A stretch of 64,000 bases of DNA, taken from positions 40,619-104,618 of the forward strand of contig CAYVNU010000002.1 of NCBI GenBank assembly GCA_964453265.1, given 5' to 3'. Of the stretch, positions 4,796 through 62,036 are shown piece after piece. Source of the stretch: an uncultured Candidatus Saccharibacteria bacterium. Lineage in GTDB: Bacteria; Patescibacteriota; Doudnabacteria; UBA920. The translations under genes were made by a program, and so were the position numbers. Under the pieces are notes generated by a model. That model was not told the DNA's origin, searched no databases, and saw nothing but the letters and a program-made list of their open reading frames with translations. The first letter of the stretch is position 1; every line of letters begins with the position of its first letter.

Positions 4796-6622
4796 TTACT
4801 TCTTAAGAACAGCTAGGAAAGCTTCTTGGGGGATTTCGACGCGGCCGATTTGCTTCATACGTTTTTTACCCTTTTTTTGCTTGTTTAGGAGCTTCATTTT
4901 TCTAGTTACGTCACCGCCGTATAGGTAGCCGGTTACGTCTTTACGTAGGGCTGAAATAGTTTCGCGGGCTATTATTTTGCCGCCAATGGCTGCTTGAATT
5001 GCTATTTCAAATTGGTGTTTTGGAATTAACTGCTTTAATTTATCTACTAATTCTTTACCATCGTTAGCTGCGGTAGACCTATGCATTATGGCAGAAAGCG
5101 CAGCAACGGGTTCGCCGGCTACTAAAACGTCTACTTTAACCAAGTCCCCAATTCTTTCTTCTATAAATTCATAATTAAGAGATGCATAACCGGAAGAGAC
5201 TGATTTTAGTTTATCGTAAAAGTCTATAATAATATTGGAAAGTGGCATTTCAAAAGACATGTCTACACGACTAGAGCCAATGTATTTTATGTCTTTGCTT
5301 ACAGCGCGACGCTGGTTGGCAATTTCCATTATAGGACCTATATATTCACTGGGGGTTAAAATATTTACAGTCATCCACGGTTCCCAAATATTTTTTATAA
5401 CGCTGGGGTCGGGCATTTCGGCGGGGTTATGAATATAAAATTCTTTAGCATCGGTTTTTTCTATACGGTACGCAACACTTGGCGCAGTTAAAATTAAATC
5501 AAGATTGTATTCACGGGTCAAACGCTCCTGCACAATATCCATATGAAGAAGACCTAAAAATCCCGTGCGGAAACCAAAGCCAATAGAAGGGATGTTTATA
5601 GGTTCGAATTCTAAAGCCGCATCGGAAAGTTTTAATTTACCCATACCTTCTCTTAAAACCGGGTAATCGTCGCCGGAGACCGGAAAAATTGTCGCGTAAA
5701 CCATGGGCTTTACATGTTTATATCCTGGTAAAGCCTTTGCCTGCGATTTATCTTCAATCAAAGTTATTGTGTCACCTACTCTGGCCTTACTAACATCACG
5801 AAGCCCCGTAACAATATACCCCACTTCACCAACCAAAATTTTATCAGAACGTTCCATTTTTGGTTTAAAGTAGCCTATTTCCAATGTCTCACTTTCTGTA
5901 TCACTACCAATCATATAAATTTTTTTCCTTGGAAAAAGTTCGCCGTCAAAAACGCGAACGTAAGCTACTACGCCGCGGTGAATGTCGTATATAGAGTCAA
6001 AAATCAAAGCTGTAACCGGCTTTTTAGGGTCGCCTTTAGGAGCCGGCACTCTTTTTATAACTTCTTTTATAATATTTTCTACGCCTTCACCGGTTTTACC
6101 GCTAGCATACAAAATTTCTTCGTCTGTAAAACCAAAAGCTGATTTTAATTCTTCGGCAGTTTTTTTACGGTCAGAGTTTGGCAAATCTATTTTATTTACT
6201 ACTGGGATAATGGTTAAGTCATGTTCCAAAGCCAAATAAACATTTGCCAAAGTTTGCGCCTCAATACCCTGTGTGCTGTCTACGACTAAAATAGCGCCTT
6301 CACAACAAGCGAGTGAGCGTGATACTTCGTAAGTGAAGTCTACGTGGCCCGGGGTATCAATAAGGTTTAATATATAAGATTTATGATTTAAAATTTCAGG
6401 CACATCACCTAAATTATCATCCAGTTCATAATCCATGCGAACCGGTTGTAATTTGATGGTAATACCTCTTTCGCGTTCTAAATCCATTTGATCCAACAGC
6501 TGGGCTTTCATTTCTCGCATTTGCACAGTTTTAGTAATTTCCAAAAGCCTGTCCGCGAGAGTGCTTTTCCCGTGATCTATATGAGCTATTATACAAAAGT
6601 TACGAATATTTTCTTGAGACAT
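4796..6622 (-). CDS. lepA: Elongation factor 4 (LepA)
   Basis: G1 motif AHIDHGKST, G3 motif DTPGHVDF, G4 motif NKID, and full-length similarity to EF4. Confidence 0.95.
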   Translation of the reverse strand: MSQENIRNFCIIAHIDHGKSTLADRLLEITKTVQMREMKAQLLDQMDLERERGITIKLQPVRMDYELDDNLGDVPEILNHKSYILNLIDTPGHVDFTYEVSRSLACCEGAILVVDSTQGIEAQTLANVYLALEHDLTIIPVVNKIDLPNSDRKKTAEELKSAFGFTDEEILYASGKTGEGVENIIKEVIKRVPAPKGDPKKPVTALIFDSIYDIHRGVVAYVRVFDGELFPRKKIYMIGSDTESETLEIGYFKPKMERSDKILVGEVGYIVTGLRDVSKARVGDTITLIEDKSQAKALPGYKHVKPMVYATIFPVSGDDYPVLREGMGKLKLSDAALEFEPINIPSIGFGFRTGFLGLLHMDIVQERLTREYNLDLILTAPSVAYRIEKTDAKEFYIHNPAEMPDPSVIKNIWEPWMTVNILTPSEYIGPIMEIANQRRAVSKDIKYIGSSRVDMSFEMPLSNIIIDFYDKLKSVSSGYASLNYEFIEERIGDLVKVDVLVAGEPVAALSAIMHRSTAANDGKELVDKLKQLIPKHQFEIAIQAAIGGKIIARETISALRKDVTGYLYGGDVTRKMKLLNKQKKGKKRMKQIGRVEIPQEAFLAVLKK

Positions 6623-6692: not shown

Positions 6693-6732
6693 TCTCCTCC
6701 GTCATTGCGAGTATAGCCAAAACAATCTATAT
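6693..6732. repeat. Dispersed GC-rich repeat, copy R2 (ctcctccgtcattgcgag...caatctatat)
   Basis: Shares cgtcattgcgag and caatctatat with R5, and ctcctcc(g/t)tc with R4. Confidence 0.45.
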
Positions 6733-30730: not shown

Positions 30731-33490
30731 TTATGATTTTTTATGATACGGCGCGTTTACCATTCCGCACTTTTTATACTTATACACTTTGCCGGTTTCG
30801 GGGTTAATTGCTCCGCAAGGGCAAGGGTCGTTGCGGCCTACATTTTCTGTTTTTACGCCTTCGGATGAATTATAATTTGAAGATAATAAGGGACTTTCAG
30901 TTTTATTGGTAACTAAATTGCTCGGAACAGAAGTTTGCTGATTTGCTGATAAATTGGGCTGAACATTAATATGAAAAATGGTATAAACCATTTGCTTGTT
31001 CATTTCTTTTATTAAGTTTTGAAACATAATAAAACCCTCTTTTTTGTACTCAACCAACGGGTCTCTTTGACCATAGCCTCTTAAGCGCACAGAGTCCCTT
31101 AAATGATCCATGGTATCTAAATGCTCCATCCATAAAGTATCCATAGCCTGCAAAGCTACAAAACGCATGGCTCCGTCAAACACTTCCTCTCCCATTTCTT
31201 TTTCTTTTTCCTCAAAAAGTTTTACCGCTTTTTGGCTCAGCGCGTCAACAACGGCAAATTCTTTATTTGCAGCGTTTTGAGCTGCGGTTTTTATTTCATT
31301 TGCCAAAGCTGTGTCAACAGGAATAATTGCGCCAATTGTTTTAATTAAGCTATCCCAATCTTCTTTAGTATTACCGTTTTCATCGAGAGTGTTTAAATTT
31401 TGAGTTGCTAGTTCCGAAAATTCATTCTTTATTAACTCCAAAAACTCTTCTTTCAATGTTTTACTATCTTCCAGTTTTTCCTTTGGATAGCCGGGCAAAA
31501 AACGCCTGCGGATTTTGTAAATTATATTGCGCTGATGGTTTAATACGTCATCAAATTCCAAAACGTGCTTGCGAGTGTCAAAGTTAAGGCCTTCAATTTT
31601 CTTTTGCGCAGATTCAATCGAGCGAGAGACCATTTTGGCCTCTATTGGCTGCTCGTCGGGAAGACCCAAAGAAGTCATAAGACTTTTCATCCGCTCACCA
31701 CCAAAAAGACGCATAAGGTCATCTTCCATGGAAACAAAGAACTGCGAAGAACCCGGGTCGCCTTGGCGTCCGGATCTACCTCTTAATTGATTGTCAATTC
31801 TGCGAGATTCATGGCGCTCCGTGCCTAAAATATGCAACCCACCGGCCTTTTTGACCGCTTCTGCCTCTTCAGGGTTAACCGGATTACCACCAAGCAAAAT
31901 GTCCACACCACGGCCGGCAATATTTGTAGCTAAAGTTACTGAACCAAAACGCCCGGCCTGAGAAATAATATGCGCTTCACGTTCATGATTTTTGGCATTT
32001 AAAATTTCAAATTGCACACCTTCCTTTTTTAAAACTTCCGCCAACATTTCATTTTTCGCAATACTAACAGTACCGATTAACACCGGTTGGCCTTTTTTAT
32101 TTCTCTCTTTAACTTCTTGAGCAATGGACTTAAATTTTGCTTCTTCAGTTTTATAAACTACATCGGGCAAATCTTGCCTAACCATAGTTCTGTTAGTCGG
32201 AATCTGTTCAATAGTCAGCCTATAAATTTTAAAGAATTCCTCTTCTTCAGTTTTCGCCGTGCCGGTCATGCCGGATAAAAACCAATACAGTCTAAACAAA
32301 TTCTGAAAAGTAATAGTGGCTAAGGTTTTACTTTCTTGTTGAATTTTTACATTTTCTTTCGCCTCAATTGCCTGATGAAGTCCTTCGCTATATCTACGGC
32401 CAAACATAAGCCTGCCAGTAAATTCGTCGACAATAATAATTTCTCCTTCACGGACAACATAATCACGGTCAACTTTAAACAAAGTTCTTGCTCTTAAAGC
32501 CTGCTCAATATGATGAATGGTAGTTACGCCTTTACTGGTGTCGTAAATATTCGGAACTTTTAAAATGCCTTCTATTTTATTTATACCCGCATCGGTTAAA
32601 CTGGCGGCTTTATGTTTTTCGTCTACTGTGTAGTCTAGTTTTTCATCTAAACGGTCGATAATTTTAGCGTATTCATAATATTTACTGGTCGGCTCAGTGT
32701 CGGGCGTACTAATAATTAAAGGCGTCCTGGCTTCATCTATTAAAATTGAGTCAACTTCGTCGACAATTGCAAAAAATAAATCACGCTGAGTCATTTGGCT
32801 AAAATGCTGAACCATGTTGTCGCGCAAATAATCAAAACCAAATTCATTGTTAGTTCCGTAAGTTATATCGGCCGCGTAAGCTTCTTTTCTGGTAATAGGT
32901 CTCATGTGCTTAACGTCTAAAACAAGTCCTTGAGTTTCGCCTTCCAACTTTTTTACTTCTTCGTCTTCCGGCTTATATTCCGGGTCATACAAAAAACTCG
33001 CTTCATGCTGAATGGAGGCAACGCTTAAGCCTAAAAATTTAAACAAAGGACCAATTAAAGAAGCTTGCCAGCGGGCTAAATAATCGTTAACGGTAACTAA
33101 ATGTGCGCCCTTGCCTGCAAGTGCATATAAAACCAAAGGCAAAGTAGCGGTTAAAGTCTTGCCTTCACCGGTTTTCATTTCTGAAATTTTGTTGTCTGAA
33201 AGCGCGAGTCCGCCGACAATTTGCACGTCGTAATGAGTTTGCCCCAAAGTTCTTTTACTAGCTTCTCTTACCAATGCAAAAACTCTGGTTCTTACTTCCA
33301 GAATTTTTTCTTTTATTTCTTCTTTGGTCTGCAGCTTAGAAAATTCCTGCTTAAAATTTGCTATTTCAGCCTGGATTTGTTCTTGAGTTAAACCCGCGAT
33401 TTCTTCTTTAAAACTATTAACTTCTAAAAGTTCGGTTTTATAGCTATCCAATGCGCTTTTTTCACCGAATAATTTGTTTAAAAATGACAT
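30731..33490 (-). CDS. secA: Preprotein translocase ATPase SecA
   Basis: 919 aa with DEAD motor motifs (MKTGEGKT, DEVDSILIDEARTPLIIS) and a C-terminal Cys-rich tail (CPCG...C). Confidence 0.95.
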   Translation of the reverse strand: MSFLNKLFGEKSALDSYKTELLEVNSFKEEIAGLTQEQIQAEIANFKQEFSKLQTKEEIKEKILEVRTRVFALVREASKRTLGQTHYDVQIVGGLALSDNKISEMKTGEGKTLTATLPLVLYALAGKGAHLVTVNDYLARWQASLIGPLFKFLGLSVASIQHEASFLYDPEYKPEDEEVKKLEGETQGLVLDVKHMRPITRKEAYAADITYGTNNEFGFDYLRDNMVQHFSQMTQRDLFFAIVDEVDSILIDEARTPLIISTPDTEPTSKYYEYAKIIDRLDEKLDYTVDEKHKAASLTDAGINKIEGILKVPNIYDTSKGVTTIHHIEQALRARTLFKVDRDYVVREGEIIIVDEFTGRLMFGRRYSEGLHQAIEAKENVKIQQESKTLATITFQNLFRLYWFLSGMTGTAKTEEEEFFKIYRLTIEQIPTNRTMVRQDLPDVVYKTEEAKFKSIAQEVKERNKKGQPVLIGTVSIAKNEMLAEVLKKEGVQFEILNAKNHEREAHIISQAGRFGSVTLATNIAGRGVDILLGGNPVNPEEAEAVKKAGGLHILGTERHESRRIDNQLRGRSGRQGDPGSSQFFVSMEDDLMRLFGGERMKSLMTSLGLPDEQPIEAKMVSRSIESAQKKIEGLNFDTRKHVLEFDDVLNHQRNIIYKIRRRFLPGYPKEKLEDSKTLKEEFLELIKNEFSELATQNLNTLDENGNTKEDWDSLIKTIGAIIPVDTALANEIKTAAQNAANKEFAVVDALSQKAVKLFEEKEKEMGEEVFDGAMRFVALQAMDTLWMEHLDTMDHLRDSVRLRGYGQRDPLVEYKKEGFIMFQNLIKEMNKQMVYTIFHINVQPNLSANQQTSVPSNLVTNKTESPLLSSNYNSSEGVKTENVGRNDPCPCGAINPETGKVYKYKKCGMVNAPYHKKS

Positions 33491-33580
33491 AAATATAGCT
33501 GTTTATTACCTAAAGAGTATATCATTATTACCGGCATTTGAAAACCCTTAAATTTAAGCTTGTTACTAATAATACTACAA

Positions 33581-33619
33581 GGCCGGCCATCATGATTTTG
33601 ATGGCCGGCTGGGTTTTTT
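33581..33619 (+). terminator. Strong terminator-like hairpin
   Basis: ggccggccatca-tgattt-tgatggccggc followed by tgggtttttt. Confidence 0.5.
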
Positions 33620-34079
33620 CCCGAAAAGTTTTTCAAACTTTTCGGGGCTCATCTCCTCAACCTTTCTGCCGGACATCCCGGCAAAAAATGAAGAGATTTC
33701 ATAGCACACCCTCAAGGTGTGCTCGGAGCTCCACTCAAACGAGTGGAGCTGATATGTTTTTCCCATACCGCCTCCTCGCAGGCAAGCCCAGCGCGCTTGT
33801 AATTCCCGCTATGTGATTTTGCGCTGGCGATTAGTTACAAAAATAACCAATCGCCAATTCAAATTTAGAGTCCTTTTGCACTAGCGTACTAGCCTGCCCG
33901 CCGACTCGTCCGACAAAGTCCGCCTCAGGCGGACGAAGTTGGAAGCTTTAGTGAAGGAGGGTACGGTGATACACGGAAATATTTAAGGGAAACCTCTTCT
34001 TAATCAACTATTTAAATAACTAACTAAGAAAGGGTGGCAGGTTTTTTAGGCCTGCCAAAATTGTTGATTTCAAAACTCA
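33620..34079. other. GC-rich hairpin-dense non-coding block
   Basis: Six or more perfect or near-perfect hairpins, for example cccgaaaagt/acttttcggg, agcacacc/ggtgtgct, gctccactc/gagtggagc, gtccgcc/ggcggac and ggcagg/cctgcc. The only ORF (33538..33816 +) looks spurious. Confidence 0.3.
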
Positions 34080-34526
34080 CTACTTCTCAAAAATTTTTTT
34101 CTGCAGGGAATTTATTAGACAAAAACGACTCTTTTGATTCTTGGACGTAATGATTTCCCCTTTACGCTCAGCCTTATAGAAGGCCTTTAAAACACCCAGT
34201 AGTTGTTTTGTCCAAAGCATTTTTTTGTACCCCTGAACTACAAAGGCTTCTAATTCCCTAGAGTATCTATTTTGAGAGGCAATTTCTGCCAGTAAATCTT
34301 CTTGAGTAATTTTTGCCATCAACAGCTCTCTAGCCTCTCGTTTTCGATCATTGGTTTCTATGACAACATATGTTTTCCCAGTCAAACTGCTCAGAGTTTT
34401 GAGCAATACAGCAATCTTTTGTTCCCGACGAGTAACAACTGAGTTATGGACAACTCCTTTTTGTTGAAAAACCATTGAACCCTCTTTCCTTGCAAGCGAG
34501 TACCCTAGCGCTCTTACCGCCTGCAT
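34080..34526 (-). CDS. Hypothetical protein (148 aa), an orphan ORF embedded in the GC-rich block
   Basis: ORF only. No recognisable motif. Flanked by the ttttgcgctgg direct repeats. Confidence 0.4.
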   Translation of the reverse strand: MQAVRALGYSLARKEGSMVFQQKGVVHNSVVTRREQKIAVLLKTLSSLTGKTYVVIETNDRKREARELLMAKITQEDLLAEIASQNRYSRELEAFVVQGYKKMLWTKQLLGVLKAFYKAERKGEIITSKNQKSRFCLINSLQKKIFEK

Positions 34527-34617
34527 TGTAGTTTTGCGCTGGTGACCAGGCTGTCATTCCAAACGTGGTGAGAAATCCCTTATAATTTAACGTTCGATCA
34601 TTGTTAGATAATCAAAA

Positions 34618-34682
34618 GTTAAGGGATCCCTCCGCTCCTCGCCAATTTTATTTCATTAAAATTGGCTCGTCGGTCGGGATGA
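34618..34682. repeat. Dispersed GC-rich repeat, copy R3 (gttaagggatccctccgctcctcgcc...cgggatg)
   Basis: Shares the 15-mer ttaagggatccctcc and the terminal cgggatg with R4. Confidence 0.45.
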
Positions 34683-34859
34683 CAAAACTCATCAAAACAA
34701 AACCACCTTCCGCAAAGAAAGGTGGTTAGGAAAGTTTTGTAACAATGCTAAACCCCAGACTTTGCGAAAGAAGGCAAAGTCCACCAAGCTGATACTGTAT
34801 ATTTTATAACTGCTTTACTCATAAAAATATGATAAACCATCGACTGGCCTATGTCAATA

Positions 34860-34873
34860 GCGTACTAGTACGC
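34860..34873. promoter_or_regulatory. Perfect 14-bp palindrome gcgtactagtacgc, a TrpR-family operator-like CTAG site upstream of yerC
   Basis: Perfect palindrome located 105 bp upstream of the TrpR-like gene. A related CTAG-n4-CTAG site (ctagcgtactag) lies at 33881-33892. Confidence 0.4.
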
Positions 34874-34977
34874 TGAAACACATAAATAATTAAGTTTATT
34901 TGAATTATCCACATCTTTATTTACAAAATCTTTTACTAATGTTACCGTACAAGTAACTCTACTAATAACAAATATTT

Positions 34978-35268
34978 ATGAAATACAAGCATGAGTACGG
35001 TGTAGAATTAGAAAAGTTAATAGAAAAAATAGGTCAAACCAAAGACAATAAACTAATGCGTGAGTTTTTGTTTGATTTACTCTCCCCTGCTGAGTACCGA
35101 GAAGTGGCTGTTAGATGGCAAATTGTCAAAATGCTTAACAAAAACATTCCACACCGGGAAATATCTAAAACACTAAAAGTTGGTTTAGCTACAATAAACC
35201 GAGGCGCGAGAGAATTGGTCAATAAAAAAGGCGGCTTTAAAACTGTATTAAATAAATTTTTTAAATAA
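34978..35268 (+). CDS. yerC: TrpR-like DNA-binding protein (YerC/YecD family)
   Basis: 96 aa. The stretch REVAVRWQIVKML...ISKTLKVGLATINRGAREL matches the TrpR/YerC helix-turn-helix. Confidence 0.75.
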   Translation: MKYKHEYGVELEKLIEKIGQTKDNKLMREFLFDLLSPAEYREVAVRWQIVKMLNKNIPHREISKTLKVGLATINRGARELVNKKGGFKTVLNKFFK

Positions 35269-35742: not shown

Positions 35743-36957
35743 TCACACTAATTCTTTTAAATCAGAGTCAGAAAAACCTATTAATTCCGGCTCAATGTGG
35801 ATATTTATCCCGAGCTTTTCTAGGGCGGTTTTTTTAACTTGCTTAGCCAGATTTAAGACATCGCTTGCGGTAGCTTTGCCGGTTTGGTTAATTATAACCA
35901 AAGGTTGATTTTTATTAATAGCCGCCCCACCGAAAGCAAAATCTTTCAATCCGCAAATATCAAGCAAAAATGCAGTTGGTACTTTTACGCTATTGGCGTC
36001 AGTAAATTTTTTCTGTTCAAGTTTTTCAGCAGTTTCTTGGCCAAATTCTTTTTGCAACCTATTTTTTAAAATTAAAAATTCTTCTTGATTTAAAATTAAA
36101 TTTTTAAAAAATGAGCCGGCGTTACCTTTTTTAGCTTCTGTGGGAAACGGAAATTTTTTATTTCTTATTTCTATAATTGCCTGACGAATTTCTAACAGGC
36201 TTGGCTTTATATTGGCAAATTTTTGAGCTAAATCTCGGTAATTTAAAATCGGCAGAGGGTTTTTTGAAAGTTTAAAGACAATTTCAAAAATAATATACCT
36301 GCCTTTTTCAGTGCTATTAAATATGCTCTTTCGATACGAAAATCCGCAATCTGTTTTATTTAGACTTAATATTTGATGGGTTTGTTTGTCAAAAACCGTT
36401 ACAGATTCTATGAGATTTTTAGCTTCCTGTCCGTAAGCCCCGACATTTTGCACGGCAATAGCACCTGTGCTCCCGGGAATATGCGATAAATTTTCCATTC
36501 CCCACCAATTATTTTTTACCGCAAAATCAACCACACTGTCCCAATTTTCACCTGAAGCCACTTTAAGAAAAATAAAATTTTTATCCGATCCGAGTCCGCC
36601 AATTGGCGGAGAGGAATCGATTTTTTGTACATGCTGATTTATATTAAGGGATCCCTCCTCCTTCGTTAAAGCTTCGGCGGACAAGTCGGCCGCACTCGGG
36701 ATGGTTAAAACATGAAAACTTTCGATTACTTCAATCCCCTTATTTACAACCCTAATAACCAACCCGCTAAATCCACTGTCAGCTATTAATAAATTACTAC
36801 CCCCGCCCAAAATAAACACGGGTAAGTTTTTTGCTTGAGCAAATTCAAAAGCCGTTAAAGCATCAAACTGGTCTTTAACCTCGCAAAAATATTTGGCCGG
36901 CCCGCCTATTTTAAAAGTGGTGTAAGGTGCTAATTGTATATTTTCTAAAACTTTCAT
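35743..36957 (-). CDS. murB: UDP-N-acetylenolpyruvoylglucosamine reductase MurB, carrying an in-frame repeat-derived insertion
   Basis: N-terminal FAD-binding motifs (YTTFKIGGPAKYF, ILGGGSNLL). The 404-aa length exceeds typical MurB, and the dispersed GC-rich repeat at 36645-36705 lies in-frame inside it. Confidence 0.85.
   Translation of the reverse strand: MKVLENIQLAPYTTFKIGGPAKYFCEVKDQFDALTAFEFAQAKNLPVFILGGGSNLLIADSGFSGLVIRVVNKGIEVIESFHVLTIPSAADLSAEALTKEEGSLNINQHVQKIDSSPPIGGLGSDKNFIFLKVASGENWDSVVDFAVKNNWWGMENLSHIPGSTGAIAVQNVGAYGQEAKNLIESVTVFDKQTHQILSLNKTDCGFSYRKSIFNSTEKGRYIIFEIVFKLSKNPLPILNYRDLAQKFANIKPSLLEIRQAIIEIRNKKFPFPTEAKKGNAGSFFKNLILNQEEFLILKNRLQKEFGQETAEKLEQKKFTDANSVKVPTAFLLDICGLKDFAFGGAAINKNQPLVIINQTGKATASDVLNLAKQVKKTALEKLGINIHIEPELIGFSDSDLKELV
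36645..36705. repeat. Dispersed GC-rich repeat, copy R4, in-frame inside murB
   Basis: ttaagggatccctcctccttcgttaaagcttcggcggacaagtcggccgcactcgggatgg. In the murB frame it encodes TIPSAADLSAEALTKEEGSLN. Confidence 0.5.
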
Positions 36958-37390: not shown

Positions 37391-37409
37391 ATTACTCAAC
37401 TTCCATCAA

Positions 37410-37520
37410 TTCATAAGACAAACGATTAAAATCCCCCACTGCCATAACGACTACCACGTCCCCTTCCTTGGTTTTTTTAAAATATCCAAGGATTCTTTTT
37501 TATTGCCAACAAGATGCATA
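37410..37520 (-). pseudogene. Remnant copy of the murC 3' end (last ~40 codons plus stop), roughly 85% identical to 38876-38983
   Basis: The minus-strand translation is LVGNKKESLDILKKTKEGDVVVVMAVGDFNRLSYELMEVE*. The murC C-terminus is ...LVHNKQEALDILKKEAKEGDVVVVMAVGDFNRLSYELNENL*. The copy is not in frame with the upstream ORF. Confidence 0.6.
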
Positions 37521-38856: not shown

Positions 38857-40347
38857 TTATAAATTTTCGTTTAGTTCATAACTTAGTCTGTTAAAGTCCC
38901 CCACTGCCATAACAACCACCACATCCCCTTCCTTGGCTTCTTTTTTTAAAATATCCAAGGCTTCTTGTTTGTTATGAACAAGTCGAACTTGATTTTTGTT
39001 ACTTGATTCTTGTTTCTTAATTTCTTTAATTACATCGGAAGAAGATATAGTGGCTTCTGATATTTTCTCGCGCGCGGGATAGATTTCGGAAATTAAAATT
39101 TCATCGGCAGCATCAAAAGCTTTAACTAAGTCAGGCAAAGTGGCTTTTGTCCGACTAAATGTATGCGGCTCAAAAACGGCCCACAACTTAGGTGTTAGGT
39201 TAGAGCTGTTAGGTTTTAGATTAGAAAAATACTTAAGACGAGCTGCTTCTAGTGTTTCGCGCACAGCGGTTGGGTGGTGAGCGTAATCGTCTATAATAGT
39301 CACGCCATTTTTTACACCCACAACTTCAAAGCGCCTCTTAAGGCCGGTAAAACTAATTAAGTCCAATAAAAACTGCTGCGGCTGAAAACCCAGTGCTCTG
39401 AGTGTAGCCACAGAAGCCAAAACATTGTAAACATTCAATTTTCCGGGCAGCTGGATTTTATACTCTTCAGTTTGACCAAGCAGCTGAGCGTTTAAATTTT
39501 TTGAAAATTTATTTATTACTTCAAAGTTTGTATATTGCCCGTATTGAATATTTTCAACTTTAAAATCAGCGTTATTATCTACTCCAAAACTTACTGAGGA
39601 CAGATTAGATTCGTGAACCAATCTAACTAAATTAGAATTATCCGCGTTGTAAACAATCAATCCATCTTCAGGCATTGCCGCAATTAACTGTCTAAATTCA
39701 TCTTCAAGCTCCTCTAAACTAGAAAAAATATCCGGGTGGTCGTATTCCAAGTTTGTTAGAACCAAAATGTCGGGTTTATAAAAATGAAATTTCGGGGTCG
39801 GATCGTCAAACTGTTCTTTGTATTCATCGCCCTCAAAAACAAAATAATTACCGTCGCCGGAATAAAAGTTTAAATTATAATTTTTTAAAACACCACCGGC
39901 CATAAAAGAACTATTATCCAAATTCTTCAGCAAATGACCAAGTAATGCTGTTGTTGTGGATTTCCCGTGAGTACCGGCAACAACAATTCTCAATTTGTCT
40001 TTACTTAAAAAATACAAATATTCAGCCAGGCCACAGCGAGTCAAATTGTTTTTTAAAATATAATCAACTTCCGGGTTTGTAAAACTTTCACCAGCAGATA
40101 TAACATACAAATCCGCGTGAGAGTTTTTAACCTGCTCTGAATCATAACCAACAAAATATTTTATTTGGTTTTTATCTAAAACATCTTTTGCCGGAGAATA
40201 AACACTTTTACTGTCGCTACCTAAAACTTCAAAACCCGCTTCTGAGGCTAAGTTAGCCGCTGCAGACATAGCAATACCGCCTATGCCCACAAAATATATT
40301 TTGGCGCCGGGAACAAGAATATTTTCTAAATCTAAGTTTGTATCCAT
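38857..40347 (-). CDS. murC: UDP-N-acetylmuramate--L-alanine ligase MurC (an Mpl-type ligase is not excluded)
   Basis: FVGIGGIAMS N-terminus, the P-loop VAGTHGKSTTT, and NLEYDHPDIF. Confidence 0.85.
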   Translation of the reverse strand: MDTNLDLENILVPGAKIYFVGIGGIAMSAAANLASEAGFEVLGSDSKSVYSPAKDVLDKNQIKYFVGYDSEQVKNSHADLYVISAGESFTNPEVDYILKNNLTRCGLAEYLYFLSKDKLRIVVAGTHGKSTTTALLGHLLKNLDNSSFMAGGVLKNYNLNFYSGDGNYFVFEGDEYKEQFDDPTPKFHFYKPDILVLTNLEYDHPDIFSSLEELEDEFRQLIAAMPEDGLIVYNADNSNLVRLVHESNLSSVSFGVDNNADFKVENIQYGQYTNFEVINKFSKNLNAQLLGQTEEYKIQLPGKLNVYNVLASVATLRALGFQPQQFLLDLISFTGLKRRFEVVGVKNGVTIIDDYAHHPTAVRETLEAARLKYFSNLKPNSSNLTPKLWAVFEPHTFSRTKATLPDLVKAFDAADEILISEIYPAREKISEATISSSDVIKEIKKQESSNKNQVRLVHNKQEALDILKKEAKEGDVVVVMAVGDFNRLSYELNENL

Positions 40348-43498: not shown

Positions 43499-44614
43499 TT
43501 ATGAATTAATATTATTAATAATATCTTTAGCTGTTTGCTGCCAAGTCAATTTTTCCGCAACTTTAGCTGCATTTTTTGTTAATTCTAGGCAAAGCCCCTT
43601 ATTACTCAACATAAGCGAAATTGAATCGCTAATTTCGTTTATATTATACGGATTAACAAGCATCCCGCCATTTTCAATTATTTCCGGTAGTGAAGTAACG
43701 TTACTAACTAAAACAGGAGTGCCACATGCCGCAGCTTCCATAGGCTGAAAACCAAAACCTTCATAATAAGAAGGGTAAGCCAATATTTGAGCCAACTTAA
43801 TAATAGCAGGTTTATCATTTTGAGGAACATACCCTAAATATTTTATTTTGTGTTTTTTAGGGCTGGCGTTAATAGCATTAAATACCTCGGAATACTTCCA
43901 GCCTTTCCTGCCGGCAATTACTAATGAACAAGGCAATTTAAGATTTTCAAACGCTTTAATTAAACTTAATAAATTTTTTCTGGGCTCTATTGTGTTCAAA
44001 AATAAAATATAATTACCAGGTAAGCCGTATTTATTTCGTGTTTGCCTTAATTTTTCCGAAGAAATTTCTGAATTAAATAATTTTTTATCAATACCCGGAT
44101 AAACTACCTGAATTTTATTTGGGTCTAGCGAAAAAACTTTAATTAAATCTGATTTTGTATATTCTGAGACGGCAAAAATTTTATCAGCTCTCGCGAACGC
44201 ATTTTTATAGTTTAAAAATTTATGCCACAATTGCCTTTTTAGGTCGTAAAATTCCGGCGTAATAACCGGAGACAAGTCATGTACTGTTAAAAACAGTTTG
44301 GCTTTTTTGGAAATATTGAATTGATTTAAATTAGGCATATACAATACATCAAAGTCGCCAATTAATTTTTCCAAGGTCAAAAGTTTTAATTTAAAAAGCA
44401 AATTTAAAAGTTTATTTGGCCAACGAGTTATTTTAATTTTTGCATTTATGTAATGAAACTCGGGCAACTCTGTCTTATAAAATGAATTAAAAAACAGCGT
44501 ATAGGAATTATTCCTATCTTGTTTTAACATATTGTCCAGCAGGTTTAAGGTATAATTCTCCACGCCCGAAACGCTGCCGGAAGATAAACTTCTTAAATCA
44601 ATCGCGATTTTCAT
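43499..44614 (-). CDS. Glycosyltransferase family 4
   Basis: EGFGFQPMEAAACGTPV motif. Confidence 0.8.
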   Translation of the reverse strand: MKIAIDLRSLSSGSVSGVENYTLNLLDNMLKQDRNNSYTLFFNSFYKTELPEFHYINAKIKITRWPNKLLNLLFKLKLLTLEKLIGDFDVLYMPNLNQFNISKKAKLFLTVHDLSPVITPEFYDLKRQLWHKFLNYKNAFARADKIFAVSEYTKSDLIKVFSLDPNKIQVVYPGIDKKLFNSEISSEKLRQTRNKYGLPGNYILFLNTIEPRKNLLSLIKAFENLKLPCSLVIAGRKGWKYSEVFNAINASPKKHKIKYLGYVPQNDKPAIIKLAQILAYPSYYEGFGFQPMEAAACGTPVLVSNVTSLPEIIENGGMLVNPYNINEISDSISLMLSNKGLCLELTKNAAKVAEKLTWQQTAKDIINNINS

Positions 44615-45677
44615 ATTTAATACTATCTCTAATAGAATTTTTAAACTTTTCCTTGCTAAATTTTACAGATTGTTGCTTTAAACCATTCAAACTAAATTTT
44701 TCCACTTCCCAGTTTAAAATAAGCTTTTTAATTTTTTCTTTGTCATAATTTTCAAACAACTCCCCAGTTACGCCGGGTACAACTGTTTCTAAAGCTCCGC
44801 CTTTGGCGTAAGCTAAAGTGGCCGTTCCGCAAGCAGCCGCCTCTAGCGGCATAAGGCCAAAATCTTCAACCTGGGGGTAAATAAAGCCTAAGGCTCCACT
44901 ATATTCGTCCCTGAGCTTAGCATCATCCACCGCTCCTAAAAATAGAATATTTGGCTTTGCAATTCCTCTTAAATACTCCGCTTGCCTGCCGGTGCCAACC
45001 ACATGAAGTAGCAAGCCAAGTTCATTAAATATTTCCACTATAAGTTCGTTATTTTTATGCGGCTGAAGTCGTCCGGCAATTAAAAAGTAATCCTGTTTTT
45101 CTACGGTTTTCTGCCAAAAATTAACATCGACACCCGGGTACACTACCGTACTAGTACACTGATAAACAGATAAAATGCGTTTTTGGACTTCTATTGAATT
45201 AGCAATAAATTGTGTAACGCGCTTTGACCCCGCCAAATCCCACTTGCGCATTTTACTAAGAAGATATTTTACAAATGGTCTTAATAAAAAAGGCACTTCT
45301 TGCTTTACGTAATTTTTATCTATCCACAAAAATCTGGGCGGCGTGTGACAATAGCAAATATGTTTAACGGTTTTAGGAACACGAATATTTTTTACAAACC
45401 CAGAACTGGACGAAATAACAACATCAAAGCCGCTAAAATCTAATTGGTCAACAGCCCAAGGTATCCAGGGCAAAAGGTATTGAAACTTGCCCAAGGCTAA
45501 ATACAAAGTCTGCAGCGGCGAAGTTCGAATGTCCCAAGTCTTATATTTTTCCTTAAACTTTGGATCAAAAACCAAAGTAAAAACAGGCGCGCCTGGAAAA
45601 AGTTCGTGGAGATGTTCAACCACGCGCTCCGCTCCTCCCATTTGAGTAAAACTGTCATGGACAATAGCAATTTTCAT
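44598..45677 (-). CDS. Glycosyltransferase family 4
   Basis: FGLMPLEAAACGT motif. Overlaps the downstream GT gene by 17 nt. Confidence 0.8.
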   Translation of the reverse strand: MKIAIVHDSFTQMGGAERVVEHLHELFPGAPVFTLVFDPKFKEKYKTWDIRTSPLQTLYLALGKFQYLLPWIPWAVDQLDFSGFDVVISSSSGFVKNIRVPKTVKHICYCHTPPRFLWIDKNYVKQEVPFLLRPFVKYLLSKMRKWDLAGSKRVTQFIANSIEVQKRILSVYQCTSTVVYPGVDVNFWQKTVEKQDYFLIAGRLQPHKNNELIVEIFNELGLLLHVVGTGRQAEYLRGIAKPNILFLGAVDDAKLRDEYSGALGFIYPQVEDFGLMPLEAAACGTATLAYAKGGALETVVPGVTGELFENYDKEKIKKLILNWEVEKFSLNGLKQQSVKFSKEKFKNSIRDSIKYENRD

Positions 45678-54242: not shown

Positions 54243-54632
54243 TTAGGTCTTTTCAGATGCATTTTTTCTACCGCTTCCAGCAGTCTTTCTAACATTACCT
54301 CTTCTGGTTCTAGAATTAGTTTTAGTTCTCTGACCTCTGACCGGTAAACCTTTTATATGCCTAATGCCTCTATAACTCTGAATTTCCTTCATTCTTTTAA
54401 TATTAAGTAGAACCTGCTGTCTCAATTCACCTTCTACTTTAAAACTTTTTTCAATAAATTCTCGGATTTTATTTAACTCAGCTTCAGACAAATCTTTAGT
54501 GCGCTTATTTGGGTCAATGTTCGTAGCTGCCAAAATTTTCTTTGACAAGGTTAAGCCTACGCCATAAATATAAGGCAATGCCGCTTCAATTCTCTTTTCA
54601 TTTGGAATATTAATACCTGCGATACGAGCCAT
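54243..54632 (-). CDS. rpsM: 30S ribosomal protein S13
   Basis: [26 protein letters not shown]. Confidence 0.9.
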
Positions 54633-54725
54633 GTTATATTTGATAATTTATAATTAATAACTAATAACTTAAAAACCTTAAGGCTTAGAAATTACCAATT
54701 AATAATTATTAATTGGGTTTAAAAA

Positions 54726-61997: not shown

Positions 61998-62036
61998 CGT
62001 CATTGCGAGAAGTGCATCCGCCGAAGCAATCTATAT
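61998..62036. repeat. Dispersed GC-rich repeat, copy R5 (cgtcattgcgagaagtgcatccgccgaagcaatctatat)
   Basis: Shares both end motifs with R2 and contains ccgccgaagc, the reverse complement of the R1/R4 core. Confidence 0.45.

Follow-up and report, generated by a model that had tools for sequence, protein, structure and literature searches.

A probable tryptophan-responsive regulatory island beside secA in Candidatus Doudnabacteria, with predicted TrpR-type operators, a Trp-Trp attenuator and a recurrent pseudoknot leader RNA

The DNA described here, a 64-kb stretch (hereafter, the window) of contig CAYVNU010000002.1, comes from a member of the candidate phyla radiation (CPR) with a low guanine-cytosine (GC) content. 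Between secA (30731-33490, minus strand) and a plus-strand gene for a 96-aa protein, the window carries a block that is read on the minus strand and has a GC content of 0.40-0.49, versus 0.30-0.39 in its flanks. The closest relatives of the encoded SecA (63-81% identity) are labelled Candidatus Doudnabacteria, and we compared the block with ~45 related Candidatus Doudnabacteria loci (154 loci, labelled L001 etc., were fetched overall). We propose, with a probability of about 0.72, that the block is a tryptophan-responsive regulatory island lying between a divergent TrpR-family repressor gene and secA. Its predicted parts (Table 1) comprise TrpR-type operators, a sigma-70 promoter, a short leader peptide with tandem tryptophan (WW) codons followed by an attenuator, and two small-gene cassettes, A and B, each preceded by a copy of a pseudoknot leader RNA.

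The block had first been singled out from its letters alone (the original prediction) as a hairpin-dense, GC-rich stretch in which direct repeats enclose an orphan open reading frame (ORF) of 148 aa (ORF148). What had been seen there stands: the GC-rich composition, the ORF itself, two pairs of direct repeats, copies of a dispersed repeat at 33895-33962 and within 34552-34684, a terminator-like element on the plus strand (33581-33610), and perfect hairpins with arms of 10-12 bp at 33582-33609, 33620-33646 and 33727-33750. The minus strand of the hairpin stretch (33560-33770) folds to -102.8 kcal/mol, compared to -55.1 ± 4.2 kcal/mol for shuffled sequences (z = -11.4; 0 of 200 shuffles as good), but most of these hairpins lie inside a protein gene. 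A scan of the block for known RNAs returned no tRNA, no transfer-messenger RNA (tmRNA) and no Rfam family.

Table 1 Features of the block, and homology of its consecutive segments to the nearest island-bearing relatives (L032, L143, L144; blastn). MITE, miniature inverted-repeat transposable element.
Feature	Coordinates	Strand	Sequence elements and remarks
TrpR-family repressor gene	34978..35268	+	96 aa; divergent from island; formerly yerC
Operator O1, degenerate copy	34947..34956		GTACAAGTAA; repressor-proximal; relatives carry a perfect GTACTAGTAC there
Operator O2	34859..34874		palindrome AGCGTACTAGTACGCT; perfect GTACTAGTAC at 34862-34871; repeat copy at 34859
Sigma-70 promoter	34829..34857	-	TTGACA-17-TATCAT; 11/12 consensus positions; best in block; kept in relatives
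Leader-peptide ORF	34748..34822	-	MSKAVIKYTVSAWWTLPSFAKSGV, 24 codons; TGG TGG at 34781-34786 (codons 13-14); stop TAG
Attenuator hairpin 1:2	34757..34782	-	GGACUUUGC / GCAAAGUCU; 5' arm begins in second Trp codon
Intrinsic terminator 3:4	34691..34727	-	AACCACCUU...AAGGUGGUU + UUUGUUUU; stem 34727-34701 + T-run; terminator scan
MITE-like insert	34552..34684		133 nt; 9-nt terminal inverted repeats TGTCATCCC / GGAATGACA; holds the segment formerly called R3
Pseudoknot leader copy A	34476..34542	-	P1 CCAGCGC / GCGCUaGG; P2 UGCAGGCGG / UCGCUUGCA; then Shine-Dalgarno AGGAAAGAGGG
ORF148	34080..34526	-	148 aa; likely true start ATG 34475 (131 aa) just past Shine-Dalgarno
Cassette terminator hairpin	34036..34056	-	GGCAGG-9 nt-CCUGCC; after ORF148; 85-89% identical to hairpin after unrelated ORF in L032, L144
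Dispersed GC-rich repeat copy	33895..33962		...CCCTCCTTCACTAAAGCTTCC...; inserted in left half of O3; similar to 941-960, 36657-36684; absent in L143
Operator O3 remnant	33881..33892		CTAGTACGCTAG; 21-nt repeat shared with O2; repeat copy at 33885
Hairpin P0	33826..33855	-	GGCGAUUGGUUA / UAACUAAUCGCC; abuts leader B
Pseudoknot leader copy B	33767..33827	-	P1 CAGCGC / GCGCUG; P2 GCGGG / CCUGC; P3 CAAGC / GCUUG; then Shine-Dalgarno GAGGAGG
ORF-B	33590..33766	-	conserved 58-aa gene; family motif SFFAG..G....F..LFG; four near-perfect hairpins in coding sequence
Terminal hairpin	33582..33609		GCCGGCCAUCA / UGAUGGCCGGC; fifth hairpin, just past ORF-B stop; formerly plus-strand terminator
secA promoter	33516..33544	-	TTTTCA-17-TG-TATACT; promoter scan
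Segment: repressor gene to attenuator	35268-34693		homology 74-80%
Segment: MITE-like insert	34692-34543		no homology
Segment: leader A and first codons	34542-34460		homology 87-89%
Segment: ORF148 body	34459-34068		no homology
Segment: hairpin after ORF148	34067-34032		homology 85-89%
Segment: O3, P0, leader B	33904-33773		homology 83-86%
Segment: ORF-B, hairpins, secA promoter	33772-33492		no homology
Segment: secA	from 33491		homologous

The product of the divergent 96-aa gene matches the Pfam family Trp_repressor (PF01371) over residues 10-93 with 73 bits (cut-off 27). It scores 48.9 bits against the NCBIfam model TrpR (TIGR01321; cut-off 67.25) and 28.8 bits against YerC/YecD (TIGR02531; cut-off 42.2), which makes it a member of PF01371 and the curated equivalog of neither, although the TrpR model scores higher than the YerC/YecD model. 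When aligned to the chains of E. coli TrpR, the protein keeps R54, T81, R84 and G85, with Ser in place of T44 and Glu in place of S88 (E. coli TrpR numbering; the positions are tryptophan-contacting ones in that protein). The TrpR motif TGTAcTnGTnnACnAgTACA is built of GNACT half-sites, and the YerC of B. subtilis is HisR, a histidine repressor with the Firmicute motif TTTA-n6-TAAA (PMC9413887).

The second pair of direct repeats in the original prediction, agcgtactag at 33885 and 34859, lies within a 21-nt repeat of 81% identity, and its two copies appear to be two copies of a predicted TrpR-type operator. The perfect 10-mer GTACTAGTAC fits the half-site GNACT, which O2 includes, and not the Firmicute HisR/YerC motif (motifs according to PMC9413887). 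O2 abuts the -35 hexamer of the promoter, a placement kept in all relatives that have the repressor gene. O3 is homologous to the GTACTAGTACgctagtgcaaaagg boxes that precede cassettes in L143, L146, L151 and L005, and its left half has been displaced by the dispersed GC-rich repeat, where L143 keeps an intact GTACTAGTAC. The perfect 10-mer was found in 23 of the 154 fetched loci, 22 of which also have the repressor gene and carry the sites inside the island or at its margin; the sole exception (L013) has only a short stretch of DNA upstream of secA. Such sites recur upstream of the repressor gene, at the -35 hexamer of the promoter that serves the leader, ahead of cassettes and, in L005, ahead of the SerK-like and TrpB2 genes. 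From the family, the motif and this context we infer that tryptophan is the co-repressor. A literature search for the exact operator string returned unrelated primer sequences only.

A second perfect GTACTAGTAC (45148-45157) stands inside the coding sequence of a glycosyltransferase (44598-45677, minus strand); with ~0.06 perfect sites expected per 64 kb, it is probably due to chance, although an internal repressor site is conceivable. The stretch from the TrpR-like gene to the leader promoter contains a perfect DnaA box (TTATCCACA, 34905-34913), with TGTGGATAA conserved at the corresponding position of at least ten related loci (L007, L008, L009, L017, L140, L142, L143, L146, L147 and L151); it could be part of the repressor-gene promoter or a DnaA-regulated site.

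The ATG of the leader-peptide ORF stands 6 nt past the -10 hexamer in the window (6-9 nt including the homologous sites in L008, L009, L017 and L032). No Shine-Dalgarno sequence was found for this ORF, and because of this and of the short distance from the -10 hexamer the peptide would have to be translated without a leader; its mRNA is probably leaderless. We found 17 homologous leader peptides of 16-28 codons with tryptophan at residues 12-14, as WW in 15, as W-P-W in one and as a single W in another. Directly after the Trp codons, segment 1 (CUUUGCC) pairs with segment 2 (GGCAAAG), and a second CUUUGC(G/C) stands in the apex of the terminator, the window's apex (CUUUGCG) being complementary to segment 2. 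Minimum-energy structures were computed with the footprint of a ribosome masked, for the window and 16 relatives (L155 lay outside that set). When the ribosome occupies the second Trp codon, segment 2 pairs with the 5' arm of the terminator (2:3) and the terminator is gone; moving the ribosome to the stop codon restores the terminator. This switch was seen in the window, L032, L143, L008, L017, L150 and L152. There was no match to the Rfam family Trp_leader (RF00513) at E values up to 1, and the attenuator is predicted to function like those of the trpL family without being a sequence member of Trp_leader.

The same RNA could be read differently, with the WW leader ORF encoding an arrest peptide or another functional peptide (TnaC- or SecM-like), or with the terminated leader RNA acting in trans as a small RNA (sRNA). 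The peptide motif WW-x-L(P) is indeed kept beyond the Trp codons, three peptides end in Pro-stop, secA lies downstream, and half of the relatives show no switch of the minimum-energy fold; moreover, the trp attenuator RNA and peptide of Sinorhizobium meliloti are reported to act in trans (PMC6614838, PMC7298713). The codons that follow WW are, however, the CUUUGCC of segment 1, which can pair with segment 2 and recurs in the apex of the terminator, and we attribute the apparent WW-x-L-P motif to this RNA-level constraint. Since secA is served by a conserved promoter of its own and is separated from the island by hairpins, and since a role in trans would add to attenuation rather than replace it, we judge both variants to be decidedly unlikely as substitutes for an attenuator.

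The first pair of direct repeats belongs to the second RNA element of the island. The string ttttgcgctgg, of which CCAGCGCAAAA is the reverse complement, occurs exactly twice in the 64-kb window (33817-33827 and 34532-34542), within a similarity that reaches 38 nt at 71% identity. By our own estimate ~0.3 exact 11-mer repeats are expected within 1.5 kb, so that the repeat is only mildly improbable alone; it gains significance because it is conserved in relatives. The copy formerly delimited at 34528-34546 is contained in leader A, which precedes Met18 of ORF148, and that at 33803-33822 in leader B, which precedes the 58-aa ORF-B. The repeats thus do bracket ORF148 on the map, as had been noted, but each sits just 5' of a minus-strand ORF and not at an insertion boundary.

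The leader measures ~65 nt, and the Shine-Dalgarno sequence and start codon follow ~60 nt past CCAGCGCAAAA. In the predicted pseudoknot, P1 pairs CCAGCRC with GYGCUGG of the apical loop, the ttttgcgctgg repeat being the 5' strand of P1. P2 has 4-9 bp and varies widely in sequence (UGCAGGCGG/UCGCUUGCA, GCGGACGG/UCGUCCGC, GAGGCGGU/GCCGCCUU, UUGGG/CCCAA and CCAGG/CCUGG). P3 (CAAGC/GCUUG) is limited to the B subtype, where it closes a loop of 6-8 nt that is the 3' strand of P1. The arms of the abutting hairpin P0 vary yet remain complementary, as judged by eye, in L032, L143, L144, L152 and L137. Fourteen B-type copies, among them copy B of the window, served to build a covariance model, with which 596 kb were scanned. 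It gave 23 matches at E values up to 0.011, namely its own 14 copies (by construction), two further B-type copies (L146, L152) and seven A-type copies; no other match below E = 0.5 was found in the 596 kb. Within the window, leader A scored E = 2.4e-5 and leader B 67 bits (E = 3e-13). Two further copies in L155 bring the overall number to ~25.

In the B-subtype alignment 96.6% of the cells were paired and 7 of 16 pairs had changed on both sides, and in the A-subtype alignment the figures were 98.1% and 7 of 15 (0 of 500 shuffles as good in either case; slid controls, 15-43% and 28-42%, respectively). Both alignments were assembled manually, N-padded and guided by the expected structure, which biases them towards pairing. 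Hand-built alignments were used for these counts because the covariance-model alignment was inconsistent in the register of P2. RNAalifold recovered P3 independently on an unguided MAFFT alignment, and the switch from G-C to A-U in P1 is perfectly coupled in all copies. A search of Rfam 15, in which the window block and the L009 island were scanned fully (nothing at E = 0.05) and ten related loci at gathering thresholds, left the leader without a match, and a literature search returned no paper combining 'Doudnabacteria' and 'riboswitch'. In metagenomes of the Joint Genome Institute (JGI), a strict pattern gave four matches, two of them genuine and both directly after a WW attenuator. In viral contigs, a loose pattern gave 54 matches, all rejected as false positives in GC-rich coding sequence; in such exact-pattern scans the motif looks rare. 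We regard the leader as a new, well-supported candidate RNA motif that is absent from Rfam.

Might it instead be a recombination site acting at the DNA level, comparable to integron attC sites, through which ORF cassettes are exchanged? At least 12 unrelated ORF families stand behind the same leader, homology between genomes stops a few codons past the start, and the 63-nt core of leader A is 98% identical to its counterpart in L032, where SecA is only 73% identical. No locus carries an integrase, however, and at one P2 position six sequences have G-U pairs, which would be C-A mismatches on the opposite strand; because of these pairs we assign the structure to the minus-strand RNA and not to DNA. 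The orientation of the leader and its spacing to the Shine-Dalgarno sequence and start codon are also constant, and homologous recombination in the conserved flanks (the leader and the terminator hairpin) would suffice for the swaps, so that we consider a dedicated recombination site very improbable.

Because the families that follow it are unrelated, the role of the leader is taken to be independent of the encoded protein, and it would exert cis-acting control of translation or stability as a separate second input. A bolder version would make the leader a riboswitch of a new class, or a new binding site for a tRNA or protein, that senses a signal of tryptophan supply and gates the translation of fast-turnover small proteins produced by a genome-reduced CPR bacterium under tryptophan shortage. 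This seems to us rather unlikely; on that version, and with no better odds, candidates for the signal would be tryptophan, indole, an aromatic-pathway intermediate or uncharged tRNA-Trp. Several assignments to known functions were tried and rejected. For RNase P RNA (GGCGGUAAGAGCGC in leader A), there was no Rfam match to RNase P, tmRNA, signal recognition particle or 6S RNA, and the segment lies within the repeated leader. For known riboswitches and leaders, Rfam E-value scans of the block and the L009 island gave noise only. As a target of the attenuator RNA, the leader would offer CGCAAA, which pairs with the terminator loop CUUUGCG, in CCAGCGCAAA and not in the common variant CCAGCACAAA. 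The 5' strand of P1 might also mimic the 3' end (GCCA) or the anticodon (CCA) of a tRNA and compete for the UGG(C) loop, but its base before CCA is unconserved and some copies have TCA, and we retain this idea solely within the bolder version above.

Behind leader A, ORF148 showed no Pfam, NCBIfam or PHROG domain, including no reverse-transcriptase or maturase domain, and no phage match by tblastn. A word-indexed search of 5.8 billion clustered proteins returned the self-match only, and a full HMMER search of 1.84 billion representatives returned itself and one marginal match (E = 8e-4) to a protein of 1036 aa. The single-sequence AlphaFold model was unusable (mean predicted local distance difference test score, 43), and the coding sequence is unstructured (fold z = -0.8). 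With a codon score of +0.10 per codon, versus -0.3 to -0.8 for the other five frames and 0.30 ± 0.05 for host genes (codon table of the window), the ORF is probably coding but atypical. Its body (34459-34068) has no homology to the relatives, in which this slot holds a conserved 91-aa ORF (MFEKIS...), and the first few ancestral codons (~5) are retained. This arrangement points to a replacement specific to the lineage, framed by a leader and a terminator hairpin that are both conserved. The adjoining MITE-like insert shares TTAAGGGATCCCTCC with 36644-36658 and has no counterpart in L032, L143 and L144, which have an operator and spacer there; ORF148 would be without a promoter of its own because the insert replaced the operator and spacer that precede leader A.

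These features bear directly on the suggestion, made in the original prediction, that the block is a decayed integrated mobile element, with the ttttgcgctgg copies as target-site duplications or terminal repeats of an ORF148 insertion. ORF148 is an orphan of atypical codon usage whose body displaces a conserved ORF, the MITE-like element with its 9-nt inverted ends lies next to it, eight relatives are without the island, and short-read assemblies break in it. Yet both copies of the repeat stand at the same positions in relatives with different ORFs, each before an ORF and not around one, and the repeat is part of a structure that shows compensatory changes. The breakpoints of homology fall at about codon 5 of the ORF and at the terminator hairpin rather than at the repeats, and the block has neither an integrase, a transposase or a reverse transcriptase nor any phage or plasmid similarity. 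Both pairs of direct repeats are better read as paralogous cis-regulatory elements (the RNA leader and the TrpR-type operator) kept at the same positions in relatives, and a mobile-element origin is highly improbable. As to the assembly breaks, independent short-read assemblies (of the source organism and of a 95%-identical relative) end at ~33920 (L001) or 190 nt upstream of the TrpR-like gene (L140, L141), which is consistent with repeats or strain heterogeneity in the island.

The hairpin-packed stretch upstream of secA, formerly held to be noncoding, is mostly the coding sequence of ORF-B. Its homologues were obtained from the translated related loci (blastp E = 6e-14 in L137, 4e-12 in L011 and 6e-10 in L003; also L013; range 6e-14 to 3e-7), a word-indexed protein search having given no candidates. 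The coding sequence folds with z = -7.7, compared to -0.5 to -3.7 in the homologues, and one of its hairpins, CCC GAA AAG TTT | GAA | AAA CTT TTC GGG, encodes PEKF-E-KLFG, of which only KLFG is conserved in the family. This may reflect quasi-palindromes that were 'corrected' to perfect ones, or else selection for mRNA structure; the hairpin richness is lineage-specific. The terminal hairpin, which had been taken for a plus-strand terminator, has its T-run on the plus strand only, and relatives have a minus-strand hairpin with a T-run at the same position. Further downstream, the promoter motif agggttttcaaat upstream of secA is kept in L032, L033, L143 and L144, and secA appears to lie outside the regulated unit, having its own promoter.

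The density of structure (z = -11.4) and an ORF between structured flanks would also fit a retron, a group II intron or another known structured-RNA cassette enclosing its own protein. No Rfam family reached threshold in the block, the L009 island or the ten related loci, ORF148 has no reverse-transcriptase or maturase domain and is itself unstructured, and the structured flank is the coding sequence of the conserved 58-aa protein, all of which makes such a cassette extremely improbable as far as sequence and profile searches reach. The wider notion of an undescribed RNA-protein module, rather than ordinary intergenic DNA, survives insofar as an RNA element without an Rfam match is coupled to small protein genes, but not in its retron- or intron-like form.

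Nor do the hairpins, within the 64 kb covered, look like generic genome-wide repeats of the repetitive extragenic palindromic (REP) or MITE-like kind without local function. Two short segments do resemble dispersed repeats (33895-33962 and part of 34552-34684 share cores of 15-20 nt with 941-960 and 36644-36684), and one repeat copy is inserted in frame in murB. The five hairpins at 33582-33750, P0 and both leaders, however, have no further copy in the 64-kb window, and leaders, attenuator and operators are positionally conserved across relatives, leaving this explanation very unlikely. The murB insertion (gene at 35743-36957, minus strand) adds ~44 aa at residues ~81-128 (36575-36715), is absent from the 64%-identical MurB of L144, and carries the dispersed GC-rich repeat (TTAAGGGATCCCTCC...CTTCGTTAAAGCTTCGGCGG), of which further copies lie at 941-985 and in the block. 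A short GC-rich motif, CGTCATTGCGAG, in AT-rich spacers at 6700-6711 and 61998-62009 resembles the ends of the insert (TGTCATYCC). Elsewhere in the window, a segment of ~110 nt (37401-37513) that separates a tetratricopeptide-repeat gene from a 147-aa ORF matches the 3' end of murC (38866-38982) at 78-86% identity and looks like a duplicated murC fragment, and the Rfam family Alpha_RBS (alpha operon ribosome-binding-site leader) matches at 54600-54697 (minus strand; 39.2 bits, gathering score 38).

The gene order murB-hpf-secA is conserved over ~36 Doudnabacteria loci, with the repressor gene, where present, and the island between hpf and secA (murB-hpf-(repressor gene)-island-secA). Homologues of the 96-aa protein led to a further 15 loci, and in every one of these the neighbourhood is the same. 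The gap between hpf and secA ranges from ~140 nt to 4.8 kb and is smallest in eight Doudnabacteria loci in which hpf adjoins secA and both the repressor gene and the block are missing. In keeping with the original prediction, the block is variable among relatives, but no insertion boundaries were found: where the regulatory scaffold is present, it is the same without such a boundary, and the leader shows the covariation described above.

Some relatives carry enzymes in the island. That of L005 encodes TrpB2, a TrpB-like pyridoxal phosphate enzyme that uses O-phosphoserine (708 bits, cut-off 366). Directly before it lies the gene of a ParB-like protein with weak SerK/SbnI similarity (the pair spans 2040-3815 of L005), and both stand behind a GTACTAGTAC operator. 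Together they could form a salvage route to tryptophan from indole and (phospho)serine. The serine kinase SerK is described in PMC5120207. The L008 island encodes a 3-deoxy-D-arabino-heptulosonate 7-phosphate (DAHP) synthase (495 bits, cut-off 335). Four relatives have a second leader peptide, MN.L.QNFW[FY][FY]F[YF]F, rich in codons for aromatic amino acids and absent from the window (L009, ~5377-5470; L017, ~5185-5280; L146, ~4360-4260, minus strand; L151, ~5190-5090, minus strand), each with its own GTACTAGTAC operator and TTGACA promoter and followed by hairpins, which looks like a Phe/Tyr/Trp attenuator. Because relatives carry TrpB2, DAHP synthase and this second aromatic leader peptide, we read the island as a putative aromatic-amino-acid regulon, of which the window version would have lost, or never had, the enzymes.

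Taken together, the tryptophan-responsive island could work as follows. Tryptophan-loaded repressor would bind the GTACTAGTAC palindromes, one at the -35 hexamer of the island promoter and a truncated one before the second cassette. The promoter would yield a leaderless transcript that opens with the 24-codon leader peptide and its tandem Trp codons. With ample charged tRNA-Trp, the ribosome would reach the stop codon and the terminator (34727-34691) would form; a ribosome stalled on the Trp codons would cover segment 1, so that segment 2 (GCAAAG) could pair with CUUUGC in the terminator apex and permit read-through, as in trpL-type attenuation. The transcript would then reach the two small-gene cassettes, each with its pseudoknot leader before the Shine-Dalgarno sequence adding the second input. 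In cassette A, ORF148 would have replaced the conserved 91-aa ORF, and the operator and spacer would have been lost by deletion and the MITE-like insertion, leaving expression of ORF148 to attenuator read-through only; cassette B would provide the conserved 58-aa protein, with secA separate under its own promoter.

Several points weigh against this proposal. The repressor stays below the TrpR cut-off, and B. subtilis YerC, of the same family, is a histidine repressor (PMC9413887), so that the effector here is drawn from context alone. The leader peptide requires leaderless translation, the terminator persists in the minimum-energy fold of 8 of the 16 folded relatives despite a ribosome on the Trp codons, and the free leader RNA of the window already favours the 2:3 fold. 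The attenuator of the window is followed only by ORF148 and the 58-aa ORF and by no trp genes, and a promoter scan found none for the individual cassettes. As for the pseudoknot leader, the pair counts come from alignments that favour pairing, a single pair of P1 varies (G-C to A-U), and the at least 12 unrelated small-protein families behind it share no pathway that would indicate a ligand.

The proposed arrangement is closest to the trp system of E. coli, with which it shares a TrpR-family repressor, a palindromic operator of GNACT half-sites at the promoter (motif, PMC9413887), and a tandem-Trp leader peptide with alternative 1:2, 2:3 and 3:4 hairpins and an intrinsic terminator (mechanism, PMC7755916). 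It differs in that the operator is a 10-bp CTAG-centred palindrome instead of the 18-20-bp TGTACTAGTTAACTAGTACA, the neighbouring repressor gene is transcribed divergently, and the leader mRNA is probably leaderless; in the window, small ORFs stand in place of trp enzymes, there is no Rfam Trp_leader match, and the host belongs to the CPR. The trpRBA operon of Chlamydia trachomatis likewise places a TrpR-family repressor beside a tryptophan-synthase beta gene in a reduced genome, with possible indole salvage (PMC7755916), and L005, with its repressor gene, WW leader, SerK-like protein and TrpB2, comes nearest to it. Chlamydia, however, has no functional TrpL attenuator and uses YtgR instead (PMC7755916), whereas the WW attenuator here looks intact; and it has TrpBA, whereas L005 has TrpB2 with a ParB-like putative serine kinase and the island of the window lacks a synthase gene. 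With HisR (B. subtilis YerC) the repressor has in common the family PF01371, a length of <100 aa, a palindromic operator and frequent autoregulation (PMC9413887). It is set apart by its TrpR-like GTACTAGTAC, as opposed to the Firmicute motif cacTTTAnnnnnnTAAAgtg, by a context of Trp codons, TrpB2 and DAHP synthase instead of his genes, and by a YerC/YecD score lower than the TrpR score, so that the former name yerC is misleading.

Integron cassette arrays also consist of tandem unrelated small ORFs, each with a conserved structured element, and vary in content between strains, but here the element lies 5' of the ORF at the ribosome-binding site, shows RNA-type G-U pairing, and comes with neither an integrase nor attC features. 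The SAM-II and preQ1-II riboswitches are H-type pseudoknot cis-regulators next to the ribosome-binding site. The pseudoknot leader resembles them in size (~55-70 nt), in a loop that pairs with the 5' strand, in A-rich joining strands, in ending a few nt before the Shine-Dalgarno sequence, and in preceding several unrelated genes; it differs in having no Rfam match and a Shine-Dalgarno sequence that is not obviously in a helix, and in that all copies seen belong to one island with downstream genes without known function.

For annotation, the gene called yerC here would become TrpR-like, ORF148 would be listed as a lineage-specific replacement and not as a conserved gene, and both the 58-aa gene and the 24-codon leader ORF escape standard gene calling. 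The pseudoknot leader, a compact motif with ~25 examples and clear covariation, is a candidate for probing and ligand screens, and if it did sense tryptophan supply, the island would amount to a three-layer tryptophan sensor of repressor, attenuator and leader. For most amino acids, CPR bacteria (Patescibacteria) are thought to rely on hosts or neighbours, and to our knowledge almost nothing is known about their gene regulation. What the sequences point to here is a known regulatory logic, that of a TrpR-type operator and a WW attenuator, in an unexpected host, joined to a new leader motif and to turnover-prone tiny genes. Our findings suggest that one CPR lineage would keep the full E. coli-style tryptophan logic, with a TrpR-type repressor and a Trp-Trp attenuator, and would apply it to salvage or aromatic-pathway enzymes (TrpB2, DAHP synthase) in some members and to a shifting set of tiny proteins in all island-bearing members; tryptophan limitation thereby becomes a cue whose part in the biology of these organisms can be put to the test.

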